Source of the DNA: an uncultured Candidatus Saccharibacteria bacterium
Lineage (GTDB): Bacteria > Patescibacteriota > Minisyncoccia > Phycocordibacterales > PALSA-1337
Direction: 5' to 3'
Assembly: GCA_964441635.1 (NCBI GenBank)
Contig: CAYTUZ010000002.1
Span: 1 to 33,599, forward strand
Length of the DNA stretch: 33,599 bases
This document shows, piece by piece, positions 3,646 to 31,001 of the stretch. The position numbers and the translations under genes were made by a program. Numbering within the stretch: the first letter of the stretch is position 1; each line of letters opens with the position of its first letter. Under the pieces are notes generated by a model. It had not been told where the DNA came from. It did not search any database and saw nothing but the letters and a program-made list of their open reading frames with translations.

Positions 3646-5601
3646 ATGGATGAAGACCGCGTCACATACTTTGGCGAAACTGACGCCCGCAACAAACGGG
3701 TGAAATTTGGCATCAAAGCCAAAGATCGCACCAAGCACGTCTATGTCATCGGCAAAACTGGCATGGGCAAGTCCACGTTGCTCGAGAATATGGCCGTGCA
3801 GGATATCCAAAGCGGCGAAGGTATGTGCTTTATCGATCCTCACGGCAAGACCGCCGACCTGCTTCTAGAATACGTTCCCAAAGAGCGTATCAACGATGTT
3901 ATCTACATCGCGCCTTTTGATGTCGAACATCCTATTTCATTCAATGTCCTCGAAAGTGTTGACCCTGACAAAAAACATTTGGTGGTTTCTGGGTTGATGA
4001 GTACATTCAAGAAAATCTGGGTGGACGCTTGGTCGGCACGCATGGAATATATTTTGACCAATACCCTCCTCGCTCTTCTCGACTATCCCGGCTCGACCTT
4101 GCTTGGCGTGAATAGAATGCTTTCCGACAAAGAATATCGGAAGGAAGTTGTTTCCAAAATTTCCGATCCGTCGGTCAAGTCTTTCTGGACCAAAGAATTT
4201 GCCGGCTACACCGAGCGCATGGCGGCAGAGGCTGTGCCTGCCATACAAAACAAAGTCGGCCAATTCACTGCCAATCCTCTGATCAGGAATATGATCGGCC
4301 AGCCGGAATCATCTTTTGATTTCCGCAAAGCCATGGACAGCCGGAAGATCATCATCATCAACCTTTCCAAGGGCAGGATCGGTGACGAGAACATGAAGCT
4401 CTTGGGCGGCATGTTGGTCACCAAGATATATCTCTCGGCCATGTCACGCGCTGACCTCACTGACCGCACCATGAAGGTCATGCCGAACTTCTATCTCTAC
4501 GTCGACGAATTCCAGAACTTTGCCAATGCTTCCTTCGCGGATATTCTCTCCGAAGCGCGCAAATATAAGTTGAACCTAACCATCGCGCACCAATATATCG
4601 AGCAGATGGATGAACAAGTCCGTGCGGCGGTTTTCGGCAACGTCGGCACCATGATCATCTTCCGTGTGGGCGCAACCGACGCCGAAATTCTGGAAAAAGA
4701 AGTTTCGCCGACATTCACTATCGAAGACTTGGTCAATCTGGGCTTCGCGCAAATTTACTTGAAGTTGATGATCGACGGCCTGACTTCTTCACCATTTTCT
4801 GCTACGACTTTGGCGCCGATCATTCATCCGGACATTTCGCATATGGAAGAGATTATCGCCGCATCTCGCCGTCAATTTGCGCAATCGCGCGAGAGTGTCG
4901 AGAAACGTATCATAGAATTTCACGAGCCGATAAAGAAAATTATTCCTCCAGCTGTTCCGCCAACTGTTCCGCCGACAGCTTCTCCGACTGTATCTACCAA
5001 CATGCCATTCAAGGCCGCATTATCGACTCCTGTTGTCACTCAGGCTCCAATCCCAGCCCATGTGCCGCCACATGCGAAAATTCCCGACAACAAACCAACC
5101 TATATCAGAAAAACTCCATATCACGAGAAAATACCACAACCTCCAGCTTCCAAGGCCGACTTGAGCGCGGCCATTTCCGCGGCTGTTGCCAAAGGTCCGC
5201 CGGTCATTGCCAAAACTCCGGAAAAACCTGCAGAAAAGCCCATAGAAAAAACTGTGGAGAAAGCTCCTATAAATCTCATTTCTAAAACTCCAGAAAAAGA
5301 ACCGAAGCCGTTATCACTCGATGCTTTGAAAGTGGTTGAAAGGCCGGTTGATGTCAAAATGCAGACCGAAGAAAATTTAGGTCACCTAAAGAGCGCTCTG
5401 GCAGCCGCTTTGCGAAAGGGACAATTGAAAGAATTTCAGTTGGAGCCGCAAGAAGGAATGAAAACAAGCGAACCTGACACTGAAGAATTTGCACCAGCTA
5501 CCCCTGTCACAGCTACGAGTACACCTATCGCCGAGACGAGAAAAGAGTTACCAAGGGAAGTGCCCGAAGCAGTCTTGAAAAACGTGCTCAAAGTAGACTA
5601 G
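3646..5601 (+). CDS. VirD4/TraD/TrwB-like (type IV coupling protein-like) P-loop ATPase with a ~230-aa Pro-rich C-terminal extension
   Basis: Walker A GKTGMGKST. Walker B-like FYLYVDEFQNF. LNLTIAHQYIEQM motif. Overall HerA/FtsK-superfamily layout. The C-terminus is PPAVPPTVPPTASP... KTPEKPAEKPIEK low complexity. Confidence 0.7.
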   Translation: MDEDRVTYFGETDARNKRVKFGIKAKDRTKHVYVIGKTGMGKSTLLENMAVQDIQSGEGMCFIDPHGKTADLLLEYVPKERINDVIYIAPFDVEHPISFNVLESVDPDKKHLVVSGLMSTFKKIWVDAWSARMEYILTNTLLALLDYPGSTLLGVNRMLSDKEYRKEVVSKISDPSVKSFWTKEFAGYTERMAAEAVPAIQNKVGQFTANPLIRNMIGQPESSFDFRKAMDSRKIIIINLSKGRIGDENMKLLGGMLVTKIYLSAMSRADLTDRTMKVMPNFYLYVDEFQNFANASFADILSEARKYKLNLTIAHQYIEQMDEQVRAAVFGNVGTMIIFRVGATDAEILEKEVSPTFTIEDLVNLGFAQIYLKLMIDGLTSSPFSATTLAPIIHPDISHMEEIIAASRRQFAQSRESVEKRIIEFHEPIKKIIPPAVPPTVPPTASPTVSTNMPFKAALSTPVVTQAPIPAHVPPHAKIPDNKPTYIRKTPYHEKIPQPPASKADLSAAISAAVAKGPPVIAKTPEKPAEKPIEKTVEKAPINLISKTPEKEPKPLSLDALKVVERPVDVKMQTEENLGHLKSALAAALRKGQLKEFQLEPQEGMKTSEPDTEEFAPATPVTATSTPIAETRKELPREVPEAVLKNVLKVD

Positions 5602-6825: not shown

Positions 6826-7248
6826 TCATTTGAGTGCTGATGAGACAGTGTAGAGATCATTGATGCCAAAGGGATTTCTGGGCGGATCCACGCCTTTGCG
6901 GTAGATCTTGTGACCGGAGCTGGGGTCCGAAAGATTGCCCAAGAACCAAACTATCTCACCAGAGTCGAGTTGCATTGGCCCGCTGTAATATTCCTCGCAT
7001 GCTCTGTTGTAGAAGGCGTCATAGAATTTTGTGTCACTCGCTAAGTCCCATCTGTCGGCCATGGCATTATAGGCGAGCAAGCCCAAGCTTTCTGCTTGCA
7101 GATAGTTGGCGGTGATTTTGATAGATCTGATCAAATAACGGTGGTTCCCTAGAAAGAGTTTTTTCCCTCTCAACAACCACAATTCTGCCCAGCAGCCGAC
7201 CAAATCCATTCCCTTGAGGTCTTCGAAAGTGATTGGTTTGTATTTCAT
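6826..7248 (-). CDS. Hypothetical protein, 140 aa
   Basis: Long ORF followed by a canonical terminator. Starts 15 nt downstream of the preceding minus-strand ORF. No motif I recognise. Confidence 0.55.
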   Translation of the reverse strand: MKYKPITFEDLKGMDLVGCWAELWLLRGKKLFLGNHRYLIRSIKITANYLQAESLGLLAYNAMADRWDLASDTKFYDAFYNRACEEYYSGPMQLDSGEIVWFLGNLSDPSSGHKIYRKGVDPPRNPFGINDLYTVSSALK

Positions 7249-7263
7249 AAATCCTTTCGTTGT

Positions 7264-7560
7264 TTATACTCCCCACCACGAAGGCATAGATCTTGCCTCA
7301 TTTTCCGCGAAGACTTGTATTGCCCTTTTTCGCAGTCGCGGAGTAATGTAAACCGTTCCAGCGAGAATTTGGAAGAGTTCGTGTTCTCGCCTGAAGTCGT
7401 CACTGTCCATTTCCGACACATTCGGTTTACCTCTTTTGCGATGAAGCGCGAGAAGCGCTTTTTGAGTCTTCTTGAGATGGCGAGTGCGTGCGGCATAGTC
7501 GACCAAACTCTGCGTGGTCGAATCCGTTCGGTGCCGAAGTCGAGTATTTAGTTTTTTCAT
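7264..7560 (-). CDS. Hypothetical basic protein, ~98 aa (MKKLNTRLRHR...)
   Basis: ORF 7264..7614 in the track; the internal ATG at 7560 is preferred. Arg/Lys-rich. Forms a two-gene minus-strand unit with 6826..7248. Confidence 0.45.
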   Translation of the reverse strand: MKKLNTRLRHRTDSTTQSLVDYAARTRHLKKTQKALLALHRKRGKPNVSEMDSDDFRREHELFQILAGTVYITPRLRKRAIQVFAENEARSMPSWWGV

Positions 7561-7621
7561 AACATCTGGAATAGATATTACAAGCATTGCGAGGGTTGTC
7601 AAATAGAATCGCAAGAATTTC

Positions 7622-7650
7622 TTGAATATCCTAGTATCAAGTTGTAGAAT
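7622..7650 (+). promoter_or_regulatory. Candidate promoter TTGAAT - 17 nt - TAGAAT
   Basis: The -10 ends 8 nt before the ATG at 7659. Lies in the divergent intergenic region between the 7560(-) and 7659(+) genes. Confidence 0.4.
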
Positions 7651-7658
7651 GCAGCTTT

Positions 7659-8204
7659 ATGGCCGATAAAAAGACAATAGACCAACGTGTTGCAGATTAC
7701 GATCAGATAAAGCATGAAGCTTCTGATCTTTACAACACCTTTGTCTCTGTTGATTGTGCAGCTCTTGGTCAAAAAGTCGATTTTACTTCAGAGGGATTCA
7801 ATCATCTTGTTTATTCTGCACCCAAGAAGATGAGAGATAAAAGAGCTCAAATACTTCGTTTTGACATGCTCTCAAAAGCAAAATTTATTCTCGAAACATC
7901 GACTACGTTTCAAGAATATGAGGAAGAAATTATCAACAAAAGAGTTAACCGAAATGGCCATTGGGTTCCGAAAAGTGTTTTAGTTTGTCGCTGGGGATTT
8001 GTGGCAATAATACAAAAGTTTCGCGTAAAAGTCGTAGTTACCAAAGAAAGCAATGGGGCTGTAAAATTTCTTAGTGTTGCACCGGCTTGGCTAACAAAAT
8101 GGTACAGGAATATCAAGATTATAGAGACATCTGTGGGAAAAGGTTTAAATAATTCTGATGATGAGGAGGTACTAAAAAACGCCACAATAAGTGACGCCTT
8201 TTAG
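7659..8204 (+). CDS. Hypothetical protein, 181 aa
   Basis: Clean ORF with a plausible promoter. The VDFTSEGFNHLVY segment is only faintly reminiscent of small phage-associated nuclease-like domains, so no function is assigned. Confidence 0.6.
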   Translation: MADKKTIDQRVADYDQIKHEASDLYNTFVSVDCAALGQKVDFTSEGFNHLVYSAPKKMRDKRAQILRFDMLSKAKFILETSTTFQEYEEEIINKRVNRNGHWVPKSVLVCRWGFVAIIQKFRVKVVVTKESNGAVKFLSVAPAWLTKWYRNIKIIETSVGKGLNNSDDEEVLKNATISDAF

Positions 8205-8335
8205 TGTGCCTGTCTCCGGCTTGGAAATAACCAGATAGGTCTGACGACCCGCAGACACACATATAATATACACAGGTATAAAGATTAAGTCAATGAATTT
8301 GTTTTCGAAAACAATCCATCATCAGGTGTTATTTT

Positions 8336-8363
8336 TTGCATTCAAATCCTTCAGGCGTATACT
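8336..8363 (+). promoter_or_regulatory. Candidate promoter TTGCAT - 16 nt - TATACT for rarA
   Basis: The -10 at 8358-8363 ends 6 nt before the ATG at 8370, and there is no SD. Confidence 0.45.
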
Positions 8364-8369
8364 ACCGCC

Positions 8370-9572
8370 ATGGAACCCCTCGCCTCTAAAATCCGCCCGC
8401 AGTCACTTGCCGAATTCGTCGGGCAAGAGCATTTGGTGGGCGAGGACAACCCCTCGACAGGTCTCGGGGCAGGACCTCTCCGTAAAGCCATAGAAGACAA
8501 GCACCTTTTCTCCTTCATTCTCTGGGGTCCGCCGGGAACTGGCAAGACTACGATTGCGAGAATTTATGGGAAGGCTGTGAATGCTCGCATATATGAATTG
8601 TCAGCGGTATCGGCTGGCAAGGATGATATCAGGAAGATCTTGGAAGACCCTGATACATTGCTGGATATACAGGCCGCCTCCGCCAAAGGCTACGGCGAGC
8701 CGAAGCCCAAGGTTTTATTCTTGGACGAAATTCATAGGTTCAACAAAGCGCAACAAGATTTTCTCTTGCCTTATGTTGAGAGTGGCAAGCTCACTCTTAT
8801 TGGCGCAACGACGGAGAATCCCAGCTTTGAAGTCATTCCTGCTCTGCTTTCACGCTGTAGGATATTTGTCTTGAATCCTTTGAGCGAAGACGAACTTAGG
8901 ACTATTGTGAAGCGAACCAAGGTGAAAGTACCCAAAGATGCGATTGACTGGCTGGTAGGATTGGCGAATGGCGATGCGCGCATAGCGATAACCGCTATTG
9001 AGAATTGCAAAAAGCTTTATGGCGGCATCAATCTGGAAAATCTCAAGAATACCTTCGAGCATGCATTTATCCGTTTCGACAAAAAAGGCGAGGAACACTA
9101 TGACACCATTTCGGCATTTATAAAAAGTATGCGTGCCGGTGATGCCGATGCTGCACTCTACTATTTGGCCAGAATGATTGCTGGCGGCGAAGATCCCAAA
9201 TTTATAGCCAGAAGAATGGTAGTGTTCGCTTCCGAAGATATCGGCTTGGCGCAGCCCACTGCACTGGTCGTCGCTAATGAAGTTTTTCGCGCGGTCGAAA
9301 CTATCGGCCTGCCAGAAGCGCAGATCAATTTGGCTCATGGTACTGCATATCTGGCACTGGCTGCAAAAGATCGCAGCGCATACGATGCCTATTTCGAAGC
9401 ATTGGAAGATGTGAGAAGTACGGGGAATTTGCCTGTACCACTCAAAATCAGGAATGCACCTACGAAGCTTATGAAAGAATTGGGCTACCATAAAGGTTAT
9501 CAAAAATATGATAAAGAGAGTTATTTGCCGGAGAAACTCAAGGGCAAGAGGTATTTGAAACGGAAGAAATAG
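8370..9572 (+). CDS. rarA: Replication-associated recombination protein A (MgsA/RarA, AAA+ ATPase)
   Basis: LASKIRPQSLAEFVGQEHL, Walker A GPPGTGKTT, Walker B LFLDEIHRFNK, TLIGATTENPSF, and C-terminal MgsA domain motifs (HYDTISAFIKSMRAGDADAALYYLARM, EDIGLA). Confidence 0.9.
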   Translation: MEPLASKIRPQSLAEFVGQEHLVGEDNPSTGLGAGPLRKAIEDKHLFSFILWGPPGTGKTTIARIYGKAVNARIYELSAVSAGKDDIRKILEDPDTLLDIQAASAKGYGEPKPKVLFLDEIHRFNKAQQDFLLPYVESGKLTLIGATTENPSFEVIPALLSRCRIFVLNPLSEDELRTIVKRTKVKVPKDAIDWLVGLANGDARIAITAIENCKKLYGGINLENLKNTFEHAFIRFDKKGEEHYDTISAFIKSMRAGDADAALYYLARMIAGGEDPKFIARRMVVFASEDIGLAQPTALVVANEVFRAVETIGLPEAQINLAHGTAYLALAAKDRSAYDAYFEALEDVRSTGNLPVPLKIRNAPTKLMKELGYHKGYQKYDKESYLPEKLKGKRYLKRKK

Positions 9573-12055: not shown

Positions 12056-12544
12056 ATGATTAACTGGACCAAAAACAAATATAAGGAATTGGATCAGAAA
12101 TACGCTACACACATGAAGGTTGTGCGTTATATGATTTCTGGTAGCACGGCGGCAGCTGTAGATTTGATTGTTCTATATATTCTCACGGGCGTCTTCGGAA
12201 TGTGGTATGTGATATCAACGCCAATCGCCTTCATCGTTGCTTTTGGCGTGAGTTTTTCGATGCAAAAATACTGGACTTTCAGGGACCATTCGACCGATGA
12301 CGTTGCCAAGCAGGGTACATTATATTTTGTTATTAGCGCGATAAATATGGCAATCAACTCCTTTCTAGTGTTCATTTTCACTGAATTTACACGAGCTCAC
12401 TTTAGTAATCTTCCAACTCTGGTCGAGAAACATGACTATCTTATTTCGCAGATTGTCGCGGCACTTTTGATTGCCATCGCAAGTTTCTTTGTTTATCAGA
12501 AGTTTGTCTTCAATCGTAAGCCGCAAATAGCACCAAAAGCATGA
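12056..12544 (+). CDS. GtrA-family membrane protein (polyprenyl-phosphate-sugar translocation family)
   Basis: VVRYMISGSTAAAVDLIVLYILTGVFGMWYVISTPIAFIVAFGVSFSMQKYWTFRD matches the GtrA-like signature. Four TM helices. Confidence 0.8.
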   Translation: MINWTKNKYKELDQKYATHMKVVRYMISGSTAAAVDLIVLYILTGVFGMWYVISTPIAFIVAFGVSFSMQKYWTFRDHSTDDVAKQGTLYFVISAINMAINSFLVFIFTEFTRAHFSNLPTLVEKHDYLISQIVAALLIAIASFFVYQKFVFNRKPQIAPKA

Positions 12545-13776
12545 AATTATTAGTTGTTACACAAGCAGTAGATGAGGACAATTCCGTATTGGCTTTTTTC
12601 CATGAATGGATCAAGGAATTTGCCAAGAATTGCGAACAGGTCACGGTTATTTGTCTCCAAAAAGGAAGGTATGAATTACCAAGCAATGTTAAAGTCGTGT
12701 CGCTTGGCAAGGGACGTGACTTTCTCGACCACGGAAAATTTCCTGCAGGAAATTTTCCTAGTCCTCGGAAATTTTCTGGTGAAAATTTCCTGCGTATGGT
12801 CTCGAAAATCACGTCCTTTGCCAAGCTCTGTTATGTAATCAATTTCTACAGATTTATTTTTCGTGAGCGAAAAAACTACGATGCGGTTTTTGTACACATG
12901 AATCCGATTTATGTGGTCCTAGGAGGCATCCTGTGGAAAAGCTGGGGAAAACCTGTGGGTATGTGGTATACGCATCGGAATGTTGACTTGAAGTTGAAGG
13001 TTGCCGAAAAACTGTCAAACGCCGTATTTACGGCCTCAAAAGAGAGTTTTTCACTACCAAGTAAGAAGGTAGTTATTGTGGGTCATGGCATTGATGTCGC
13101 TCGATTTGCAAATGTTAAAAGAGCCAAAGAATTGGGCATAGAACCGATCCGAATAATTTCTGTTGGCCGAATTACAGCTATAAAGAATTGCGATGTTTTG
13201 GTTGAGGCAGCTAGAATTCTGAAGGATAAGTGGCAGAAACAATTTGAAGTTTTCCTGATCGGTGCAGCTGTCACAACCGAAGACCAGTCGTATGAGCATA
13301 AGATCAAGAATCTGATTGACGCTTATGATTTGGAGAATATTGTGAAGTTGACTGGTAATATTTCGGCCGAAGAAATGCCTTTGCATTATTCGATGGCGGA
13401 CGCTTCGGTAAATTTGACCCCGACTGGCGGAGTTGATAAAGCGGTTTTGGAATCGATGGCTGCGGGTGTGCCGGTATTTTCGTCAAATAAGACTTTTACA
13501 GATTATTTTGGTTCGTACGCTGAAGATCTTATTTTCCAAGAAAAAAATGCGGTAGATTTGGCAGACAAAATCATGAAATTATTCTCGGGCAATCAGCTGG
13601 CAGAGCTTAGCGAATCTGAAAAGAAAACCGCGCGCGAACGAGCGGACGTTTCAGCTTTAATCTTGATGGTCGTGACGCAGATGTCCCTACTTCGCTCCTC
13701 GCAGACTCCTTCTTCGCCAAGGCTTCGAAGGACAAGTCGGAGCTACGCAGGGCAAGCTGACGTTGTTAAAAAGTAA
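12541..13776 (+). CDS. Glycosyltransferase family 4 carrying an in-frame palindromic insert and a repeat-derived C-terminal tail
   Basis: MKLLVVTQAVDEDNSVLAFFHEWIKEFA N-terminus and GGVDKAVLESMAAGVPVFSS C-domain. ATGA overlap with the GtrA gene. Confidence 0.8.
   Translation: MKLLVVTQAVDEDNSVLAFFHEWIKEFAKNCEQVTVICLQKGRYELPSNVKVVSLGKGRDFLDHGKFPAGNFPSPRKFSGENFLRMVSKITSFAKLCYVINFYRFIFRERKNYDAVFVHMNPIYVVLGGILWKSWGKPVGMWYTHRNVDLKLKVAEKLSNAVFTASKESFSLPSKKVVIVGHGIDVARFANVKRAKELGIEPIRIISVGRITAIKNCDVLVEAARILKDKWQKQFEVFLIGAAVTTEDQSYEHKIKNLIDAYDLENIVKLTGNISAEEMPLHYSMADASVNLTPTGGVDKAVLESMAAGVPVFSSNKTFTDYFGSYAEDLIFQEKNAVDLADKIMKLFSGNQLAELSESEKKTARERADVSALILMVVTQMSLLRSSQTPSSPRLRRTSRSYAGQADVVKK
12702..12826. 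repeat. Compound palindromic element, copy 1 (MITE/RPE-like)
   Basis: Inverted outer arms plus two internal perfect hairpins at 12733-12758 and 12767-12790. The core is repeated at 19298-19396. Confidence 0.85.
13685..13752. repeat. Imperfect GC-rich hairpin forming the last ~25 codons of the GT4 gene
   Basis: Paired segments CCCT/AGGG, GCTCC/GGAGC, TCCTTC/GAAGGA and GCC/GGC, separated by near-symmetric internal loops. Encodes LLRSSQTPSSPRLRRTSRSYAGQA. Confidence 0.45.
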
Positions 13777-16000: not shown

Positions 16001-16969
16001 ATGAACAAGTTCCTGTCCGTTCAGAATAAAACAAAAGTAAATTGCATTATCTGTGGAAATGTTGCGAATTTTTTGATGGAAAAAGACGGCTATTTTATCT
16101 ATGAATGTCCGAAGTGCCGTTTGTCATTTGTTCATCCTCAACCCGCGGTGTCATTTCTAGAAGAAGAAGTTTATTCCGAAAAATCTGGTTATCAAGGAAA
16201 TAAACTAAAGGATCTTTCGAGAGTCGCGCCGACCAAAAAGCAAGCAAAAGTCTTGAATTATTTGAGAAGCCAAAACAAAGGCAAATTCTTGGACGTGGGT
16301 TGTTCCAGTGGCGAGTTTATGTATTTTGCAAAAAAGCTTGGCTTTGAAGTAGTTGGCGTGGAAATAAATCCGCGCACAGCTGCTATTGCCAAAGCGAATC
16401 GCTTGAATGTAATTCTTGGCACATTGGAACAAGCGCGTTTTCCAGATCATTCATTCGACTACGTCCATATGGGCGATTTGATTGAACATGTTACGGATCC
16501 ACGAGCTCTGATCAAAGAGACACATAGGATTTTGAAACCAAATGGTAGCCTGATAATTGTCACTCCTAATATGGATTGTTTTTGGGCAAAAGCGACATTC
16601 TTCTTATTCCGACTTTTCAAACTCCCTTGGAGTTCGGCAACACCTCCACATCACCTATTTCAATTTTCTATAAGTAATTTGAGGACTCTTTTGGAACAAG
16701 AAGGTTTTAGTTTTGGAAAAGTTTGGTTTACCGGCACACCAAGCTTGAAATACGAATTGGGTTCGCTTCACCTCCTCAAAAAGTGGAAAAATCAACACAG
16801 TCTTCCCAATTTATTCTGCATGATTTTTGGTTTTGGTTTGTACTCAATCGTATTTGGAATTAATCGGATCGTCGAATTGTTTCCAGTTAAAAGATTTAGT
16901 ATGGCGGTGGTGTTTGTGTTTTCCTCCTCCGAAGCCGAGGATGTCTCTCGCGCCGTAGAAAATGCTTAA
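16001..16969 (+). CDS. Class I SAM-dependent methyltransferase with an N-terminal Cys4 zinc ribbon
   Basis: CIICGN...CPKCRLSF ribbon. SAM motif I FLDVGCSSGEF. Motifs DYVHMGDLIEHV and LKPNGSLIIVTPN. The last ~22 codons lie in the left arm of the 16904-17185 inverted repeat. Confidence 0.8.
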   Translation: MNKFLSVQNKTKVNCIICGNVANFLMEKDGYFIYECPKCRLSFVHPQPAVSFLEEEVYSEKSGYQGNKLKDLSRVAPTKKQAKVLNYLRSQNKGKFLDVGCSSGEFMYFAKKLGFEVVGVEINPRTAAIAKANRLNVILGTLEQARFPDHSFDYVHMGDLIEHVTDPRALIKETHRILKPNGSLIIVTPNMDCFWAKATFFLFRLFKLPWSSATPPHHLFQFSISNLRTLLEQEGFSFGKVWFTGTPSLKYELGSLHLLKKWKNQHSLPNLFCMIFGFGLYSIVFGINRIVELFPVKRFSMAVVFVFSSSEAEDVSRAVENA

Positions 16970-17185
16970 CAAAATGCGAGTCTCGCTAGGAATTGTTGAG
17001 ATCGCGGCACTTTTTTATTTCATTGAAAAAATATTAAAGAAGTGCTTTGCAACATTCCGAGATGACAGGGATTTTTTCAATGAAATAAAAAAGTGCCGCG
17101 ATCTCAACAATTCCCGAGCATTTTGTTTAGCATATTTCCGGCGCGAGTTACGCAGACGAGGAAGACGAGACACAAACACCACCGC
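16904..17185. mobile_element. 282-nt inverted-repeat element (MITE-like)
   Basis: Identical 16-nt termini: GCGGTGGTGTTTGTGT at 16904-16919 and its reverse complement at 17170-17185. 44-bp perfect inner arms at 16989-17032 and 17071-17114 around a 38-nt loop. The middle parts of the arms are diverged but alignable. Confidence 0.6.
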
Positions 17186-17202: not shown

Positions 17203-18255
17203 ATGTTAAAAGTCTTCATCGGCCAACCCATTCCCAATTTGCCGATAGCTGACGTTATTCGGCCCAATTTTGGCGCGGTTGGACTGGATCGTTGGACGGA
17301 GCGTCATGTGCAGTTGAATACGCCGGTTCTTGAATTGGTAAAAACTCCAGAGGAAGCTGATTTCCTATTAATTACGCACAATTACAATGCCGTGTGTGGC
17401 AATGCGGAATATTTGCGCTCTTTCAAAACTCTTTCAAGGAAGTTAAATAAAAAAGTTATAGTTTTCTTTCCGGGCGATTCCAGTCAAGAAGTACCCATTG
17501 AAAATGCTATAGTCTTCCGGAATTCCCAGTATCGTTCCACTTTGAAAAAGAATGAGATTATTCTTCCCGGCTTTGTGGAAGATCTGGGTGCGAATCTTGA
17601 ATTGAAACCAAGAATGAAATCCAATGACAAAGCAACAGTCGGTTTTTGTGGCTGGGCAGACTTTCATTCAACAGCAGACTATCTCAAATTTTGGGCCAAA
17701 TCCTTGCCAACCACTTTGGCTTCATTATTCAATCGGAAGGTTTTGATTAAGCAAAAGGGCCTGTGGTGGCGCCGGAAAGTGATAAAAAACCTCTCGAATT
17801 CAAAGAAAATCAATACCAACTTTATTATTCGCAAAAGTTATTCTGGTAACGAAAAAACTATTGAACTCGATCCTAGAATAGCGAGACAAGAATACATTGA
17901 CAACATTCTTGGATGTGATTTCACACTCTGCATAAAAGGCGATGGTAATTTTTCCACCAGATTTTTTGAGACCTTGTCGCTTGGTAGGATTCCACTTCTC
18001 GTCGACACAGAATGTGTTTTGCCACTGGAGGAAGTCATCGATTATTCACAGATCATTTTAAGAGTGAATTGGAAAGATCTAAGTAAACTCGATTCCATAG
18101 TCGCGGATTTCTACGCCAAAGTGACTCCTGACCAATTCTCGGAAATGCAAAAGAAAGCGAGGGAAACTTTTGAAAAATATTTGAGGCTGGATGCTTATTT
18201 CAAAACTATCAGTAAAAAAGAATATTATGAAAAAGGCAATGCAATGGCTCATTAA
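17203..18255 (+). CDS. Exostosin-family (GT47-like) glycosyltransferase
   Basis: KGDGNFSTRFFETLSLGRIPLLVDTECVLPLEEVIDY matches the exostosin C-terminal signature. Confidence 0.65.
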   Translation: MLKVFIGQPIPNLPIADVIRPNFGAVGLDRWTERHVQLNTPVLELVKTPEEADFLLITHNYNAVCGNAEYLRSFKTLSRKLNKKVIVFFPGDSSQEVPIENAIVFRNSQYRSTLKKNEIILPGFVEDLGANLELKPRMKSNDKATVGFCGWADFHSTADYLKFWAKSLPTTLASLFNRKVLIKQKGLWWRRKVIKNLSNSKKINTNFIIRKSYSGNEKTIELDPRIARQEYIDNILGCDFTLCIKGDGNFSTRFFETLSLGRIPLLVDTECVLPLEEVIDYSQIILRVNWKDLSKLDSIVADFYAKVTPDQFSEMQKKARETFEKYLRLDAYFKTISKKEYYEKGNAMAH

Positions 18256-19795
18256 AAACAAAAAAGAGCTGATCGTGACGTCGCTTTTTTGCGCCGCCTT
18301 ATTTTTCAGTACCTACAAACTCAGTGAAAGTCCGCCAACATGGCTCGATGAAGGCATGATCGTGCAAACATCAAAGACTCTGGTTGAAGAAGGAGTCTAT
18401 TCCGTAAAAGTTGCGCCTGACACGTATATTTCTCCGGGTTTCATTTCCACAAGTTACCCTGTGACATTTCCAATCGCATTATCTTTCAAACTCTTTGGCG
18501 TTGGTTTGCTTCAAGCCAGAAGTGTAATGGTTATTTATATTTTAGCATTTCTTTTATCGATTTATTTTCTAGCAAAAAGACTTTTCAAGAATGAATGGCT
18601 AATGATCGCCGGTTTGGCGCTATTGGTCAGTTTTCCGCCACTTTATGGCAATGGCAAAAACGTGCTTGGCGAAGTCCCCGGGCTTTTCTTCTTGACGGTG
18701 TTTTTGATATTCATCGACCGGATTTGGAAAGGCGACCGGCGCATTTCACAATTCATTCTTGCCGGCTTGACACTGGGCCTTTGTATTGCCACCAAGCCGA
18801 TTTTTATTTTACTGCTTCCTGTTGTGGCAATGTGGCTCTTATACGTCTGGTTAAAAAAGCCTGAAGTTTTTGGTCGTGGCATAATCAAAAACAGCTTATA
18901 TTTTATTGTTTGCGCATTGTTACCGCTCGTCGCATGGATAATGATCCAGTTTCGTGGTGATTCGTTTGTCGCAACTCTTTCTTATTACGCGAATCCGCAC
19001 AGTGTAAATTTGGCGACATCTTTGCTCTCGAATATAAAAGCTTTTTTGACGGCGCCGGAATCGTTGTATTTCTTTGCTCTTTATTTGGTTTGGTTGACGG
19101 CGGTCACATTCAGAGTTTGGTCCAAAAAGAATATCGAAGTCGCGGAATTGGTCGCTTTTGGTTTTTCCACCCTAGTTTTACTGGCATATTTTAGAAATCC
19201 GGCTTATTATCGCTATTTTTTCTTGGCGGAGGTTTATTGCTTGTTATTCTTTGTGCAAACACTTAACTTTATTATTGGGACGCGCCCGAAGGCGGCCGAT
19301 GTGACTTCCTCGACCACGGAAAATTTCCTGCAGGAAATTTTCCTACGGAATTTTCTGGTGAAAATTTCCTGCGTATGGTCTCGGAAATCACATCGGCCGC
19401 TTTCGGGCGCTGGCATCTCAATATTTGTTATTGTGTTTGCACTTATTATTTTCCAATCCTACCAACTCCTTTTTCATTCTTGGGTTTCGCAATATTATGG
19501 CAGTACCAAAACTCGCGATTGTGTCGCGGCTATCGGAAAAATTCCGCAAGCAAAATCCATTTTCTTTTATCAAGATCCGGAACTGGTTATTTTCCGCGCT
19601 GGCGGCAATTATTACCAATATATGGATAGCATCGAAACCGATCAGAGCCGCACTGAAAAGAAGCGCTTGATCAAACAAGGGGTTCCGGATATTGTGGCGG
19701 TTTCGAGTGAAATAATGCCGCAAATACAGGATATTTTGGAGAAATACGTCTCATCGAGTTCTTGTGACCGATATCAGATATTGAATAAGAAATAG
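18227..19795 (+). CDS. GT-C fold membrane glycosyltransferase (ArnT/PMT-like, GT39/GT83-type)
   Basis: More than 10 TM helices. First-loop acidic motif PPTWLDEGM, typical of polyprenyl-phosphate-sugar-dependent GT-C enzymes. The start is ambiguous (18191, 18227 or 18239) and overlaps the upstream gene. Confidence 0.7.
   Translation: MKKAMQWLIKNKKELIVTSLFCAALFFSTYKLSESPPTWLDEGMIVQTSKTLVEEGVYSVKVAPDTYISPGFISTSYPVTFPIALSFKLFGVGLLQARSVMVIYILAFLLSIYFLAKRLFKNEWLMIAGLALLVSFPPLYGNGKNVLGEVPGLFFLTVFLIFIDRIWKGDRRISQFILAGLTLGLCIATKPIFILLLPVVAMWLLYVWLKKPEVFGRGIIKNSLYFIVCALLPLVAWIMIQFRGDSFVATLSYYANPHSVNLATSLLSNIKAFLTAPESLYFFALYLVWLTAVTFRVWSKKNIEVAELVAFGFSTLVLLAYFRNPAYYRYFFLAEVYCLLFFVQTLNFIIGTRPKAADVTSSTTENFLQEIFLRNFLVKISCVWSRKSHRPLSGAGISIFVIVFALIIFQSYQLLFHSWVSQYYGSTKTRDCVAAIGKIPQAKSIFFYQDPELVIFRAGGNYYQYMDSIETDQSRTEKKRLIKQGVPDIVAVSSEIMPQIQDILEKYVSSSSCDRYQILNKK
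19282..19410. repeat. Compound palindromic element, copy 2
   Basis: Same core as 12716-12814 with 2 substitutions and 5-nt plus 1-nt indels. The outer arms are GCGCCCGAAGGCGGCCGATGTGA / TCACATCGGCCGCTTTCGGGCGC. Confidence 0.85.
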
Positions 19796-19833: not shown

Positions 19834-20787
19834 ATGAAAAAACTTTCCATAGTCATTCCGGTTTACTGGAATGAACCTAATATTCCACATACTGTTCCAA
19901 GACTGCAGAAATTTTTGGATTCTTTGAAAGGCTTTGAAAGCGAATTGATCTTCGTCGACGACGGTTCTGGTGACCGATCTTTGGAGTTGTTAATCGCCGA
20001 ACAAAAGAAAGATCCGAGGATTAAAATCATAAAACTTAGCCGGAATTTTGGCTCGATGCAAGCTATCACTGCTGGCATCTCTCGCGCCACGGGCGATTGC
20101 GTGGGTATGATCACATCTGACCTCCAAGATCCGCCAGAATTGTTTGGCGAAATGATCGCCAAATGGCAAGCGGGGAATAAAGTCGTCATTGCCGTTCGTT
20201 CCGATCGTGAAGAATCTTTTTCGCAGAAATTATTTGCCAAGATTTTTTATAAGCTGATGGCGCGTTTTGCTTTGGCCGGATATCCCGCTGGCGGCTTCGA
20301 TTTTTTCCTCATTGACAGACAGGTTGCAAAGGAAGTTGTCGCTATTCAAGAAAAGAATACCAATGTCATGAGCCTGATCTTTTGGCTGGGCCATCGGCGT
20401 GCCAGTATTAGCTACGTTCGCCAGAGGCGGCAACATGGCAAATCACGCTGGACCTTTATGAAGAAGATCAAGTTTTTCATTGATTCTTTTGTAGCTTTTT
20501 CCTATATGCCGGTGCGTTTTATTTCAACGATTGGTTTATTTACAGCGTTGGTCAGTTTTGCTTTTGGTATTTATGTCATTATTTCCGCGATTTTTGGCAA
20601 AATTCCTGTGCAAGGCTACGCACCATTAATGGCGGTTATCACCTTTCTTCTGGGGCTAATTATGATCATGTTGGGCATTATCGGCGAATATTTGTGGCGA
20701 ACACTCGATGAGAGCCGCAAACGGCCGCCTTTTATTATTGACGAGATCTACGGTTTCAAATCAGAAGTCGGACTTCTGCATAAGTAG
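19834..20787 (+). CDS. GT2 polyprenyl-phosphate glycosyltransferase (GtrB/ArnC/CsbB-like) with two C-terminal TM helices
   Basis: LSIVIPVYWNE, FVDDGSGDRS and SDLQDPPEL motifs, plus two C-terminal TM helices. Confidence 0.85.
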   Translation: MKKLSIVIPVYWNEPNIPHTVPRLQKFLDSLKGFESELIFVDDGSGDRSLELLIAEQKKDPRIKIIKLSRNFGSMQAITAGISRATGDCVGMITSDLQDPPELFGEMIAKWQAGNKVVIAVRSDREESFSQKLFAKIFYKLMARFALAGYPAGGFDFFLIDRQVAKEVVAIQEKNTNVMSLIFWLGHRRASISYVRQRRQHGKSRWTFMKKIKFFIDSFVAFSYMPVRFISTIGLFTALVSFAFGIYVIISAIFGKIPVQGYAPLMAVITFLLGLIMIMLGIIGEYLWRTLDESRKRPPFIIDEIYGFKSEVGLLHK

Positions 20788-20788
20788 T

Positions 20789-21928
20789 ATGAAGATAATT
20801 TATTTAGCTGACATACGCCTACCCACGGAAAAAGCTCACGGTTTTCAAATCATGAAGACCTGCGAGGCTTTGGTGCGAGTGGGGAACGAGATCACGCTTA
20901 TGATTCCTTCTTGGAACAAAGCGACTCCGGAGGAAATATTCAAATATTATGGTTTGACGCAAAGCTTCTCAATTGAGAAAATTCCTCAGACAAAATTCAA
21001 TCTCATAAAATTTGGATCAATTGGTTTTGCTTTGCGATCATATTTTTTTGCCAAAAAAGCAGCTGGCAAATTGGGGGGTCGTGAGTTTGACGCTGTTTAC
21101 ACCAGAGATGAAGCAGTTGCGGTATACAGAGGTCCGACCTCTGTATTTTATGAGATGCATGACGTGAGAAAGGGTCTTCTTCAAAAGAAGGCGATGACTC
21201 GCGCATCTGGAATCATTGCTATTTCTAATGGGCTAAAAGATTATTGTGTTGCGCAGGGAATTGATCAATCGAAAATAACGGTTGTGCCTGATGCGGTTGA
21301 TCTGGAAGAATTTGATATCGAACAAAACAAGGACGATGTCCGACATCGCCTAGGTTTACCAAAAGATAAGAAAATTGTTCTTTATTCCGGGCATTTGTAT
21401 TCTTGGAAAGGCGCTGACACTCTGGCGGAAGCCGCACATTATTTGGATGCCGATACCGTCGTCGTATTTGTCGGCGGTACACCTTGGGATATTGAATCTT
21501 TCAAAAATAAATATCGAGGTGCCACCTCGAGGTGCCACCTCGATATTATTGGCCAGAAACCCCACTCAGAGATTCCTTTGTATCTGAAAGCCGCTGATGT
21601 TCTAGTATTGCCAAATAGCGCCAAAGAAGACATTTCGCGGCTTTACACTTCACCGGTGAAGCTCTTCGAATACATGGCATCCGGCGTGCCGATCGTGGCT
21701 TCGGACTTGCCCTCGATCCGAGAAATCTTGAACGAGGAATGTGCGGTTTTTGCCAAACCTGACGATGCTCTGTCGCTCGCCGAGAAAATCAAATATTCTT
21801 TGGCTAATGTTTCCAAAGCTGTTATACTCTCTAATCGAGCGCTTGAAGAGGTCAAAAAATATTCTTGGGGCATGCGTGCCAAGCATATCCTCACGTTTAT
21901 GAAGATGCGGTTGAATGCAAAGCAATAA
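20789..21928 (+). CDS. Glycosyltransferase family 4
   Basis: MKIIYLADIRLPTEKAHGFQIMKTCEAL N-domain and TSPVKLFEYMASGVPIVASDLPSIREIL C-domain. ATG is 1 nt after the upstream stop. Confidence 0.85.
   Translation: MKIIYLADIRLPTEKAHGFQIMKTCEALVRVGNEITLMIPSWNKATPEEIFKYYGLTQSFSIEKIPQTKFNLIKFGSIGFALRSYFFAKKAAGKLGGREFDAVYTRDEAVAVYRGPTSVFYEMHDVRKGLLQKKAMTRASGIIAISNGLKDYCVAQGIDQSKITVVPDAVDLEEFDIEQNKDDVRHRLGLPKDKKIVLYSGHLYSWKGADTLAEAAHYLDADTVVVFVGGTPWDIESFKNKYRGATSRCHLDIIGQKPHSEIPLYLKAADVLVLPNSAKEDISRLYTSPVKLFEYMASGVPIVASDLPSIREILNEECAVFAKPDDALSLAEKIKYSLANVSKAVILSNRALEEVKKYSWGMRAKHILTFMKMRLNAKQ
21124..21146. repeat. 23-nt palindrome ATACAGAGGTC-C-GACCTCTGTAT inside the CDS
   Basis: 11-bp arms. Bases 21126-21146 are identical to the reverse complement of 33398-33418. 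Confidence 0.8.
21511..21546. repeat. 36-nt palindrome and tandem duplication ATAT(CGAGGTGCCACCT)x2CGATAT inside the CDS
   Basis: The 13-nt unit is duplicated in tandem. The whole block is self-complementary except for the two unit centres. Encodes RGATSRCHL. Confidence 0.75.
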
Positions 21929-25543: not shown

Positions 25544-26329
25544 ATGAATACCACGAAAGATCTGTCAAACAACAAAAACAGGTTGGCTATAGTCGCAGGT
25601 GGGATGGGGTATGTAGGTTCGGCGATGGTTCGGCGACTGGCCAAGAGTGGCATGAAGGTTGCCGTTCTCTATCACATTGCTACGCCAAAAGAAGTTTCGG
25701 GTCTACTTTCGGAACTTTCCGGTCACGGAAGCGCGTACTCGTGCGATCTCAAGGACGCCGCTCTCGTAGAACGCACGATGGAGAAGATCGTCAAAGAACA
25801 GGGTATGCCATACGTCTGCATAGATGCCGCCGGGTCCATGCCGCAGCAAAAGCAGTTGAACCTCTCTACTGTCGAAGAAGTTCGCGCCGAGCTCGAAGGG
25901 TCTGTTATCAGAGATTTTATATTCCTGAAATCATGCGCTTTTCAACTGAAGAAAAATAGAGAAGGTATTATCATAGGTATAACCACGGCCGGAGTAGTAA
26001 CTCCCGTAAATACAAAAGCCCGCGGAGCTTATAGTATGCAAAAATTCGCGCTTCAGGGCATGTTGGTCGCTCTCAAGGAAGAACTCGCACCTTACGGTAT
26101 CAATGTTTATTCCATTGCGCCGGGGGTATTGCCGGGCGGGCTAAACCGCGACACGCCAAAAGCTTTTTTGGACATAGTGCGTGCCAAGAGCGCGAGTGGC
26201 AAAATTGCCGAAGCTTCGGATATTGCTGACATAGTCGCATCCTTGTGTACTGGTAGCGATCGGTCGGAAGTACCTTTTACGATCCTGATAGCTCCCGAAT
26301 CAGAAAATCCAAAATCCGATGTTCTTTAA
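25544..26329 (+). CDS. Short-chain dehydrogenase/reductase (SDR) family oxidoreductase
   Basis: Gly-rich NAD(P) motif AIVAGGMGYVGSAMV and catalytic YSMQK (YxxxK). ATG 25544 is preferred to the track start 25469. Confidence 0.75.
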   Translation: MNTTKDLSNNKNRLAIVAGGMGYVGSAMVRRLAKSGMKVAVLYHIATPKEVSGLLSELSGHGSAYSCDLKDAALVERTMEKIVKEQGMPYVCIDAAGSMPQQKQLNLSTVEEVRAELEGSVIRDFIFLKSCAFQLKKNREGIIIGITTAGVVTPVNTKARGAYSMQKFALQGMLVALKEELAPYGINVYSIAPGVLPGGLNRDTPKAFLDIVRAKSASGKIAEASDIADIVASLCTGSDRSEVPFTILIAPESENPKSDVL

Positions 26330-27800
26330 TTCTCTGCAGTTTCTGATCTTCTTTGCGGTCATATTTCTCCTATATTATGGAGTTGTACCTGATCGCCATC
26401 GCTGGCTATTGCTTCTAGTCGGAAGTTGTTATTTTTATATGGCATATATCCCCAAATTTATATTGGTCTTGTTTGCATTGATAACTGTTGATTATTTTCT
26501 GGGACTCAAGGTGTCAAAAACTTCCGGCAAAACACGTAAATTCCTTCTTGTTCTTAGCATCGTCGTCAATATCGGTACTCTATTTTTCTTTAGGTACTTC
26601 AATTTTTTTAATGAAAATATCTCCTATATCGCGCAACTGATTCATTGGAATTATCCGTTGGTTTTGTTGCAAATTGCTTTGCCCTTAGGTCTTTCTTTTC
26701 ATGTATTTCAGAGCTTGAGCTACGTGATAGAGGTCTATAGGGGGAAACAGATGCCAGAAAGGAATTATGGTATATACGCTCTTTATGTGATGTTTTTCCC
26801 CCAGCTCGTGGCTGGTCCCATAGAAAGACCGATGCATATGTTGCATCAATTTTACGAGCCGCACAGTTTCGATGCCACGAAGGTCAGAAGAGGCTTGGAA
26901 ATGATGCTTTGGGGTTTTTTCAAAAAATTGATAATTGCCGACAGAGCAGGACAGATCGTGGATCATGTCTACGGAAATATCGCGGGATCCAACGGTTTTG
27001 TGGTAGGCGTCGCCGCAGTGCTGTTCGCCTACCAGCTTTATTGTGATTTTTCCGGATACTCGGATATTGCCGTCGGTTCCGCCTTGGTATTTGGTTACGA
27101 CTTAACCCGAAACTTTGACCGTCCATTCTCGGCTCGCTCGATAGCGGAGTTGTGGCGGCGATGGCATATCTCCTTGTCGAGCTGGCTTAGGGACTACTTC
27201 TACTACCCACTCACATTTACTGGCAAGAAAGTTACCAAGTTGCGCGTCTATACCAGCCTGTTTGTCACCTTCACTCTGATCGGTCTATGGCATGGGCCAA
27301 ATTGGACATATGTGATATTTGGAGCTTTACAGGGTATATATACAGTTTTTTCTTCTGCTTCTGCGGCGTGGAGGAAACGATTTCTTGCAATGATCACTCT
27401 CGATCAGCACAATATAGTCCATCATTTTATACAAACTGTAACCACCTTGATCCTGTTCGGAGCCAGCCTCGTCTTTTTTCGGGCCGCAAGTGTGCGTGAG
27501 GCGGGGCAGATCTTCGCCAGAATGGGAAACGCCATAGCTCATCCACTCCAGGGATTTACAGGCTGGGGCAGTTTTTTTAGTTATGAAAATTTTGGTGTGC
27601 AGACGCAGGTTATCATTATGCTAGTCGTTACCATAGCTTTTCTCGAATGGGTCCAATATCTACAGGCCAAAAAAGGAAATATATTTATACTGGAAACCAG
27701 TCGACGTTACTTGCGGTGGGGCGTGTATTACGGATTGGTCTTTGCCACTCTGCTTTTGGGATATTTTGGCGCGGAACCGTTTATTTATTTCAAATTCTGA
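26319..27800 (+). CDS. MBOAT-family membrane O-acyltransferase (AlgI/DltB/PatA-like)
   Basis: MFFNSLQFLIFFAVIF N-terminus, FWRRWHISLSSWLRDYFYYPL motif and conserved-His region IGLWHGPNW. Confidence 0.9.
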   Translation: MFFNSLQFLIFFAVIFLLYYGVVPDRHRWLLLLVGSCYFYMAYIPKFILVLFALITVDYFLGLKVSKTSGKTRKFLLVLSIVVNIGTLFFFRYFNFFNENISYIAQLIHWNYPLVLLQIALPLGLSFHVFQSLSYVIEVYRGKQMPERNYGIYALYVMFFPQLVAGPIERPMHMLHQFYEPHSFDATKVRRGLEMMLWGFFKKLIIADRAGQIVDHVYGNIAGSNGFVVGVAAVLFAYQLYCDFSGYSDIAVGSALVFGYDLTRNFDRPFSARSIAELWRRWHISLSSWLRDYFYYPLTFTGKKVTKLRVYTSLFVTFTLIGLWHGPNWTYVIFGALQGIYTVFSSASAAWRKRFLAMITLDQHNIVHHFIQTVTTLILFGASLVFFRAASVREAGQIFARMGNAIAHPLQGFTGWGSFFSYENFGVQTQVIIMLVVTIAFLEWVQYLQAKKGNIFILETSRRYLRWGVYYGLVFATLLLGYFGAEPFIYFKF

Positions 27801-28946: not shown

Positions 28947-29217
28947 TTAAAAATTGAGCGCATAACGGAAATCATGTCCCGGCCGATCTTTCACATATAT
29001 CCAGTAGCGCACATTCGAGCCTTTTCCATAAATCGGCACTTTCATATTCGAAAGAAGATTTGCTATGAACCGTGCCTCTATCATCTAGCACTGCAACACC
29101 AAATCTTTTGGGATCCTTTACTTCCTTCAGGAATATAGTGGCGCCGCCGCGAAAGCTTTTTAGATAGTCGTCGATCCACGTAGTCTTTGGCGATATAGAG
29201 ACCTTTTGTGTCGGCAG
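28947..29217 (-). pseudogene. Fused relics of rmlA-like (glucose-1-phosphate nucleotidyltransferase) and rmlB-like (dTDP-glucose 4,6-dehydratase) genes
   Basis: Minus-strand frame 1 reads KSFRGGATIFLKEVKDPKRFGVAVLDDRGTV (compare RmlA [25 protein letters not shown]). Shifted frame 29066..28947 reads IANLLSNMKVPIYGKGSNVRYWIYVKDRPGHDFRYALNF* (compare RmlB LPIYGKGDQIRDWLYVEDH and DRPGHDRRYAID, which are normally ~60 aa apart). No start codon, a frameshift and an internal deletion. Confidence 0.7.
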
Positions 29218-29267
29218 TTACCAACAGTATAGTCTTTTATAATCTTGAATGTTATCCTCTTTGTATC

Positions 29268-30907: not shown

Positions 30908-31001
30908 GCCCACCTCGCACCGGCAAGGGAGGTGAGCTCGGCGAAGCGTTTAACAGCGTGTAGCGAGCCGAGCGAATCCCCCTTGCCGGTGCGAGGCGGG
31001 C
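30908..31001. repeat. Intergenic 94-nt GC-rich hairpin element
   Basis: 17-bp perfect stem (30913-29 with 30980-96), plus GCTCGGC/GCCGAGC (7 bp) and GCCC/GGGC (4 bp). No U-tract follows. Confidence 0.7.

Follow-up and report, generated by a model that had tools for sequence, protein, structure and literature searches.

Small palindromic repeats that are fused in-frame to genes and translated with them are known from Rickettsia. As summarised in PMC2229807 and PMC10969869, these Rickettsia palindromic elements (RPEs; Ogata et al. 2000) form families with a conserved full-length sequence, including 12-bp terminal inverted repeats, and reach dozens of in-gene copies. Here we describe a compound palindromic element that occurs twice in a contig of an uncultured Candidatus Saccharibacteria bacterium (Patescibacteriota; GenBank assembly GCA_964441635.1, contig CAYTUZ010000002.1, positions 1 to 33,599, the whole of which is called the window below), each time in-frame within a glycosyltransferase gene. 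With a probability of roughly 0.6, we interpret it as a non-autonomous selfish palindromic repeat of Patescibacteria, analogous to the RPEs and read through by the ribosome.

Like the RPEs as described there, the element is a palindromic repeat of 100-150 nt with a long predicted stem-loop (125 and 129 nt here), lies both between genes and in-frame within conserved genes of a small-genome bacterium, where it would be tolerated as an extra surface peptide, and comes with no associated transposase. It differs in being found in Patescibacteria, the distinction from RPEs being made by phylum and description, in having only two in-gene copies instead of dozens, and in the short hairpins left at the orthologous empty sites. 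In contrast to both RPEs and MITEs (transposable elements of the miniature inverted-repeat type), it is the tip that is conserved while the outer 25-35 bp are locus-specific, an inverse architecture. An earlier note on this DNA, made from the letters alone, had drawn the parallel with RPEs. The parallel holds as an analogy (palindromic, in-frame, tolerated) but not as membership of an RPE family, given the other phylum and the lack of conserved termini.

Other small repeats share part of these features. In contrast to MITEs, the terminal inverted repeats are not conserved family-wide and there is no direct target-site duplication. The ERIC/RU-1 and YPAL/RU-2 repeats are likewise small, non-autonomous and palindromic, with open frames that become fused to open reading frames (ORFs) (PMC2229807, PMC2759123). 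YPAL targets sites on or adjoining dyad symmetry (PMC2229807) and is the nearest precedent for the hairpin stubs reported below, dyad symmetry being present at both empty sites. Those repeats, however, have direct target-site duplications (3-26 bp for YPAL; PMC2229807, PMC2759123) and a family-wide conserved sequence, whereas neither window copy is flanked by a direct duplication. The RAYT-mobilised REP/REPIN sequences (PMC3733652) also form hairpins, their doublets forming long ones, and are structure-dependent and single-strand-oriented without classical terminal inverted repeats, but they are extragenic and carry a GTAG/CGTC tag, whereas the arm ends here bear no tag and the window copies are intragenic. 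No RAYT-like gene was found among the window ORFs scanned. Palindrome-associated elements derived from IS200/IS605 have subterminal hairpins at both ends and no inverted termini, and they insert 3' of a fixed tetra- or pentanucleotide. Here, two internal hairpins (P2 and P3, described below) lie inside a long stem, and a common target oligonucleotide could be sought in two filled/empty pairs only. The intervening sequences (IVS) of 23S rRNA are extended stem-loops that replace hairpin loops and are excised without religation, and the GC clusters or double-hairpin elements of fungal mitochondria are small mobile two-hairpin modules that can sit in genes. Both belong to other hosts and have other sequences, and nothing here indicates excision. 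Finally, template switching creates, homogenises and expands inverted repeats (PMC8794818, PMC13100816). The hairpins that it produces (PMC8794818, PMC13100816, PMC5453318) would account for several features presented below, namely substitutions that are compensated, an indel that is symmetric, arms that grow outward into host sequence, and an inverted copy of gene sequence at 16904-17185, but template switching is a mutational mechanism and not an element, and alone it cannot explain the same asymmetric 70-nt tip at unrelated loci and in other genomes.

Two copies of a compound hairpin in glycosyltransferase genes

The first copy occupies positions 12702-12826 of the forward strand, at codons 54-96 of a family 4 glycosyltransferase (GT4) gene (12541-13776, forward strand, 411 aa; PF00534, 8.9e-24), and forms a compound hairpin of 125 nt. 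Its arms (12702-12731 and 12797-12826) are 87% complementary over 30 nt. Inverted arms had been noticed here before and are present, but their pairing spans 30 nt and not 18. The minimum free energy (MFE) is -67.7 kcal/mol (z = -11.0), none of 200 shuffles folding as well, and a covariance model of the tip scores 100.1 bits on the forward strand against 42.7 bits on the reverse strand.

Analysis of this hairpin from the outside inwards revealed successive layers, all on the forward strand. The locus-specific outer left arm GCTTGGCAAGG (12702-12712), which encodes the host motif (S)LGK, pairs with the likewise locus-specific outer right arm CTTTGCCAAGC (12816-12826), which encodes FAKL, through pairs that include one G.T. 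SLGK is invariant in an alignment of 16 GT4 homologs, and the 10-nt outer left arm is also present in an ortholog (locus L037) that is without the core. The inner stem, common to both copies, follows with a 19-nt left arm (12713-12731) facing 12797-12815, 16 of the 19 pairs being Watson-Crick. It encloses P2, a perfect 26-nt palindrome GGAAAATTTCC-TGCA-GGAAATTTTCC (12733-12758), then a linker TAGTCCTC (12759-12766; family consensus TARTCCTCG), a second hairpin P3, GGAAATTTTC-TGGT-GAAAATTTCC (12767-12790), and a conserved 3' junction motif (C)TGCGTA (12791-12796), whose family consensus CTGYGKA starts at the last P3 base, 12790. Both internal hairpins were found exactly where the earlier note had drawn them. 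P2 is invariant in all four known family members, none of its 11 pairs ever varying, while three of the ten P3 pairs change on both sides among these members. The 11-mer GGAAAATTTCC, with at most one mismatch, occurs 13 times in the window versus 2.05 expected.

The second copy (19282-19410, forward strand) is a complete hairpin of its own, 129 nt long, with 35-nt arms that are 89% complementary (MFE -86.0 kcal/mol, z = -12.4; 0 of 200 shuffles folding as well; 84 bits on the forward strand with the covariance model). It lies in-frame at codons 364-407 of a PMT_2/GT39-like membrane glycosyltransferase gene (18191-19795, forward strand; PF13231, 3.8e-10), in an element frame other than that of copy 1. 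The GC-rich, locus-specific outer left arm GCGCCCGAAGGCGGCC (19282-19297) pairs with the outer right arm GGCCGCTTTCGGGCGC (19395-19410). Between them stands the core in common with copy 1 (19298-19394), made of the inner stem, P2 (19318-19343), a shortened linker, P3 and the junction.

The two copies lie 6.6 kb apart in unrelated genes, without flanking homology, and their cores are about 96% identical, 19 bp of stem included. The shared part amounts to about 100 nt (12713-12815 versus 19298-19394). The second copy had been announced as a core of some 95 nt with two substitutions; it exists, but it is larger, and the substitutions number four, while the 5-nt and 1-nt indels were given correctly. 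The four substitutions correspond to two doubly compensated pairs of the inner stem, 12715/12813 (C:G to T:A) and 12723/12805 (T:A to C:G), and three inner-stem mismatches (C.A, T.C, C.T) are kept in both copies. Copy 2 is missing 5 nt (GTCCT) in the linker and 1 nt in P3, and has an extra 5-bp layer added symmetrically on both arms. Beyond the shared part, the outer stems are unrelated in sequence, yet paired, with a single G.T at the tenth pair in each. The AAGG/CTTT adjoining the shared part in both copies may be due to chance.

In-frame insertion into variable loops

Both host genes belong to a cluster of envelope-glycosylation genes, and the closest homologs of both carry the names Paceibacterota, Parcubacteria, Minisyncoccia or Patescibacteria. 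The aligned GT4 homologs measure 347-375 aa, versus 411 aa in the window, and the segment of about 35 aa suspected to be an insertion is missing from them. Between the invariant SLGK and the xKLxYxxxFY helix, the insert takes the place of a short variable linker. The closest syntenic ortholog has SLGK-EKTKR-LAKL there, against 36 residues in the window, or 30 codons more on balance. Likewise, the PMT_2 orthologs are without 34 codons between two transmembrane helices, copy 2 being a +34-codon insertion. Net insert lengths are thus +90 nt for copy 1 and +102 nt for copy 2, both multiples of three. The element is read in different frames, DFLDHGKFPAGNFP... in copy 1 and TTENFLQEIFL... in copy 2, as expected for DNA that is merely tolerated.

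In the AlphaFold2 model of the GT4 protein (mean predicted local distance difference test, pLDDT, 86.5), insert residues 60-79 score below 50 and form a surface loop. In that of the PMT_2 protein, insert residues 366-403 have a pLDDT <50 and lie between helices 337-363 and 406-428. According to these models, the inserts sit in low-confidence loops of otherwise confident predicted folds.

The host ORF remains open through the element in both copies, as had been observed for the first, and the stop-free stretches seen in further frames are also real: four of the six frames are open, that is two of three per strand because the element is palindromic. Two open frames per strand occur in 2-6% of shuffles and in 23% of real 125-nt tiles of the contig. 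Stop-codon depletion was considered as a sign of selection for ORF compatibility and was retained as a weak indication only, once palindromy and the coding-like background were taken into account.

The host GT4 gene carries a separate GC-rich insertion of about 75 nt at its 3' end relative to L037 (13695-13768), non-palindromic (z = 0.03), which gives a predicted disordered tail of 25 aa (…SSQTPSSPRLRRTSRSYAGQADVVKK, pLDDT <50) overlapping the start of the next gene. It was rejected as a third copy, being a distinct insertion that does not fold.

A family with a conserved tip and locus-specific stems

An exact-pattern scan for the P2 hairpin over 185,579 species genomes, and over metagenomes, returned 31 genome loci, 10 of them in Patescibacteria, and five metagenome loci. 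Two of these show the full architecture, which confirms that copies exist elsewhere. The first, in a Saccharibacteria metagenome-assembled genome (MAG), lies between convergent RRM and LOG-family genes (L018, identical to L035); the second, in a Paceibacterota MAG, lies between PLD and infC genes, antisense to both (L005, identical to L034). Both being intergenic, a preference for coding regions, which had been raised as a possibility, is not borne out.

Comparison of the four members revealed a conserved tip of about 70 nt in the order (A/C)C(A/G)C, the invariant P2, TARTCCTCG, P3 and CTGYGKA. The outer stems, of 25-35 bp, are locus-specific and unrelated among the four members, and the 19-bp inner stem is common to the window copies only. 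A covariance model of the tip gives 84-103 bits to the four members in the sense orientation versus 34-43 bits in antisense. Applied to 288 kb of sequence, it found no copy beyond these four; its other matches were the P2-only hairpins by which the loci had been selected.

A related family is present in Taylorbacteria and Parcubacteria MAGs (L012 5780-5975, L013 ~5155-5300, L007 ~725-955, L020 ~1212-1400), directly after stop codons. It has the GGAAAATTTCC / GGAAATTTTCC arms of P2 with a 7-nt loop and a similar linker, TTATCC..TCG; its junctions are conserved and rich in CGCTCG, and its third hairpin (P3) is nested and hypervariable. In L012, one arm of the element is itself interrupted by a 19-nt hairpin.

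A search of the window and of the related loci against Rfam 15 at the gathering threshold, group I/II introns and small ribozymes included, gave no match; at E<=10, only generic miRNA-precursor-like hairpins appeared, with at most 24 bits versus cut-offs of at least 44 bits. Nor did the element or its motifs match anything in phages, plasmids or viral contigs, and literature searches returned no description of such an element in bacteria of the Candidate Phyla Radiation (CPR), in line with the earlier impression that the family had not been described.

Hairpin stubs at the orthologous empty sites

At the empty GT4 site, the sequence of the syntenic ortholog (L037/L042, 65% aa identity) is GCTTGGCAAG-GAAAAGACTAAACGC-CTTGCCAAGC, which forms a perfect stem of 10 bp and a loop of 15 nt precisely at the position of the window core. 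At the PMT_2 site, the ortholog (L038, 74% aa identity) reads GCCCCCGAAC-GCCTCG-GTTTCGGGGGC, a GC-rich stub that matches the outermost 9 bp of the copy 2 outer stem with one compensated change, G:C to C:G, relative to the window. The distant orthologs L040 and L041 have no hairpin at either site. Since hairpins number 3 in 7.1 kb of L037 and 2 in 4.8 kb of L038, the chance that both insertion points meet a hairpin is estimated from these counts at about 1.6e-4.

Two histories fit these data about equally well. In history (a), the core recently entered the loops of short pre-existing hairpins. The host genes are 26-35% diverged in protein from their stub-bearing orthologs while the two cores are far more alike, and this difference suggests a recent arrival in hairpins that were already there. 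In history (b), both insertions are ancestral, the relatives lost the centre by central deletion and kept the stubs, and gene conversion made the two window cores alike. The arms of the stubs coincide with host codons and add no length, LAKL aligning with xSKL in other homologs, which looks like an extension of the arms by template-switch conversion; such an extension is likelier if a large palindrome was already present, as in history (b).

Proposed maintenance and spread of the element

In the interpretation that we favour, the heritable unit would be the asymmetric tip of about 70 nt (junction, P2, linker, P3 and CTGYGKA), carried on the end of a locus-specific stem of 25-35 bp. Two near-identical copies occupy variable loops of the two glycosyltransferase genes and would be translated as a disordered surface loop in the GT4 protein and as an inter-helix loop in the PMT_2 protein, the lengths in multiples of three and the stop-free frames leaving the host genes intact, probably at near-neutral cost. 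The arms would be kept complementary, and extended outward into host codons, by template switching within the palindrome during replication, by which substitutions and indels turn up on both arms together. We consider it probable that template switching keeps the arms paired, and that P2 is the recognition site of a putative factor. The element itself would be mobile.

Several observations weigh against this interpretation. Only four distinct members are known, of which only two are in genes. First, no transposase, recombinase or other mobilising gene was found among the 28 window ORFs scanned for domains. Secondly, neither copy boundary shows a direct target-site duplication, the flanks being inverted repeats; together with the lack of family-wide conserved termini, this means that classical transposition is not supported. 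Thirdly, P2 and the linker are 100% identical across distant CPR lineages, which hints at a function or a recognition site more than at junk, and the three inner-stem mismatches that persist in both copies indicate that arm homogenisation is incomplete. Finally, the 36-aa frame-A peptide had no match among 1.84 billion cluster representatives, a weak negative because insert-bearing members can hide behind representatives at 50% identity.

A more specific form of the selfish-repeat interpretation, which we put forward tentatively, as a possibility that the present data do not make probable, is that of a hairpin-seeking mobile module. Its tip of about 70 nt would insert into the loops of hairpins or cruciforms already in place, or be swapped from one such loop to another, even within genes. 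This would produce nested "onion" palindromes with inner layers from the donor and outer layers from the recipient, and the invariant P2 would be the recognition site of a putative CPR enzyme. It is suggested by the stubs at both empty sites (chance ~1.6e-4), by their absence from the distant orthologs, and by cores that are more alike than their hosts. We know of no description of structure-directed integration into hairpin loops by an element of less than 150 nt with locus-specific stems.

Alternative explanations

The conserved tip could instead be a functional structured nucleic acid. It would be either an RNA with a three-way junction or an array of DNA sites (four GGAAAWTTTCC half-sites) to which a putative CPR-specific protein binds, and the outer stem would be needed for pairing only, as is the case for many non-coding RNAs. 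Copies within genes would then serve as embedded regulators, acting on mRNA stability or giving RNase III an entry site, or as platforms for DNA binding. P2 and the linker do not vary among the window organism, Saccharibacteria and Paceibacterota, the stems differ wholly and still pair, the same P2 tip defines a second family right after stop codons, and the strand scores of the covariance model give the element a well-defined, asymmetric orientation. P3 covaries, and its three covarying pairs in four sequences are the only family-wide support for the three-way-junction fold drawn in the earlier note; in the window copies, however, this junction competes with an alternative pairing of 12745-12757 with 12781-12793, because four near-identical half-sites are mutually complementary. 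The covariation statistics are weak with four sequences, 93 of 500 shuffles reaching the same number of pairs changed on both sides. An RNA role was also judged by strand asymmetry of folding or of wobble pairs, and none was found: both strands of each copy fold equally well, which fits a DNA-level element, and G.T and A.C mismatches are balanced between strands. Moreover, Rfam yielded no match, one copy of the four runs antisense to the genes on either side, and a regulatory RNA would be unexpected in two unrelated ORFs, in two frames and in disordered loops. Overall, we regard this explanation as unlikely.

About as improbable, in our view, is a purely local by-product, in which replication errors by template switching in this lineage would build hairpins in situ and enlarge them, and copy 2 would derive from copy 1 by ectopic conversion or by a single duplication, the likeness in other genomes being due to horizontal transfer of one palindrome or to convergence on an A/T-tract hairpin. 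Such an origin would suit a genome rich in unrelated palindromes, one of which has an arm inversely copied from host coding sequence, as well as the several small in-ORF hairpins missing from orthologs, the stubs at both empty sites, which evolve as hairpins, and the failure to find a mobilising gene in the window ORFs scanned. On the other hand, the same asymmetric, non-palindromic order of P2, linker, P3 and CTGYGKA over about 70 nt is found at four unrelated loci in three lineages, which local template switching cannot make independently, and the window copies are without the flanking homology that would allow conversion.

A much more remote explanation is an intervening sequence removed after transcription or translation, be it intron-like, by RNase III excision and religation, by translational bypass or intein-like. 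The long outer stem would bring the host flanks together as in rRNA IVS, and a stem of 30-35 bp is a plausible RNase III substrate. Both inserts, however, have a length divisible by three and no stop codon in the frame in which they would be read, and these frames differ; a sequence that is taken out would need neither property, and the joint chance for two copies is about 0.05. Further, no intron or ribozyme family matches, the predicted translated insert has no intein-like domain but a low-confidence peptide only, and the other family members are intergenic. Judged from the architecture, retrons, 6S RNA, bridge or omega RNA, attC and dif-like sites were set aside, since the partner gene or the features that define them are lacking.

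An assembly or chimera artefact can be dismissed almost entirely: although one Logan contig shows that the repeat can confuse assemblers, the in-frame insertions recur in five independent assemblies from NCBI, JGI (contig L036), ENA (contig L039, with one SNP, a single-nucleotide polymorphism, in P2, and P0242) and Logan (P0243), from different samples, and the host reading frames are intact on both sides of the element. In that Logan contig (P0243, 1353 nt), the left half of copy 2 in the PMT_2 gene is joined to the right flank of copy 1 in the GT4 gene, giving a truncated chimeric protein, through an assembler error or, possibly, through recombination across the repeat. The earlier note had named two findings that would speak against its interpretation, namely the peptide in unrelated orthologs without palindromic DNA, and an artefactual pair with no further copies; neither was encountered.

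Implications for Candidate Phyla Radiation genomes

The phenomenon is real, undescribed and mechanistically suggestive, and rests on four members and two comparisons of filled with empty sites. If confirmed, it would extend "selfish DNA inside protein-coding genes", so far essentially restricted to Rickettsia, to the CPR, whose genomes are tiny and gene-dense, so that hardly any insertion can survive in them unless it is compatible with ORFs. It would also represent a source of lineage-specific disordered loops in cell-envelope glycosyltransferases. In practice, gene callers, protein clustering and assemblers can all be misled by the repeat, and one public contig is already chimeric across it. 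The inverse architecture offers a tractable case in which to ask how long bacterial palindromes arise, grow and are tolerated, and whether some small elements target DNA secondary structure over sequence. Lastly, an invariant 26-nt palindrome common to two element families points to a putative trans-acting factor in CPR bacteria.

Other palindromes and neighbouring features of the contig

Short hairpins with arms of 9 nt or more and a loop no longer than 20 nt number 8 in the window versus 2.0 in shuffles. One of the other palindromes is layered, measures 282 nt (16904-17185) and overlaps the 3' end of a methyltransferase gene (16001-16969). Its inner arms form 44 perfect base pairs (16989-17032 and 17071-17114, z = -13.5). 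Around them lie a middle layer of 19 nt, with the stop codon in it, and a perfect outer layer of 16 nt. As the left outer arm encodes the conserved C-terminal MAVVF, the right one (17170-17185) is a perfect inverted copy of host codons, which shows that palindromes in this contig do grow as host sequence is copied into them in inverted form. At this position, a spacer of about 80 nt is all that the ortholog L042 has.

In the spacer between the ORFs 29208-30884 and 31063-32016 lies a GC-rich hairpin of 94 nt (30908-31001; z = -8.9) with arms of 35 nt that are 86% complementary; its sequence is not related to that of copies 1 and 2. A 19-nt palindrome ACAGAGGTC[C/G]GACCTCTGT is found at 21124-21146 and 33400-33418 in opposite orientations, the former in-frame in a variable segment of another GT4 gene (20708-21928), and may represent a second family of mini-palindromes. 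The same gene contains in-frame a 38-nt palindrome (21510-21547) formed from a tandem 13-mer CGAGGTGCCACCT (x2), which makes the protein 3 aa longer than the L038 ortholog (RGATSRCHLD versus GNDEK..I); a similar CGAGGTTTAACCTCGAGGTTAAACCTCG occurs in a GT4 gene of L037 (2194-2221). Inside an MBOAT gene (26319-27800) stands a 34-nt hairpin, TGGTAGGCG-N16-CGCCTACCA (27001-27034).

The window (6826-9572) has about 2.7 kb of extra genes relative to the syntenic contig L042 (6661-6733). Two small ORFs on the reverse strand belong to them, as do one of 181 aa and one for an MgsA-type AAA+ ATPase. Both the window and L042 have kept a TraG/VirD4-like coupling ATPase (3646-5601).

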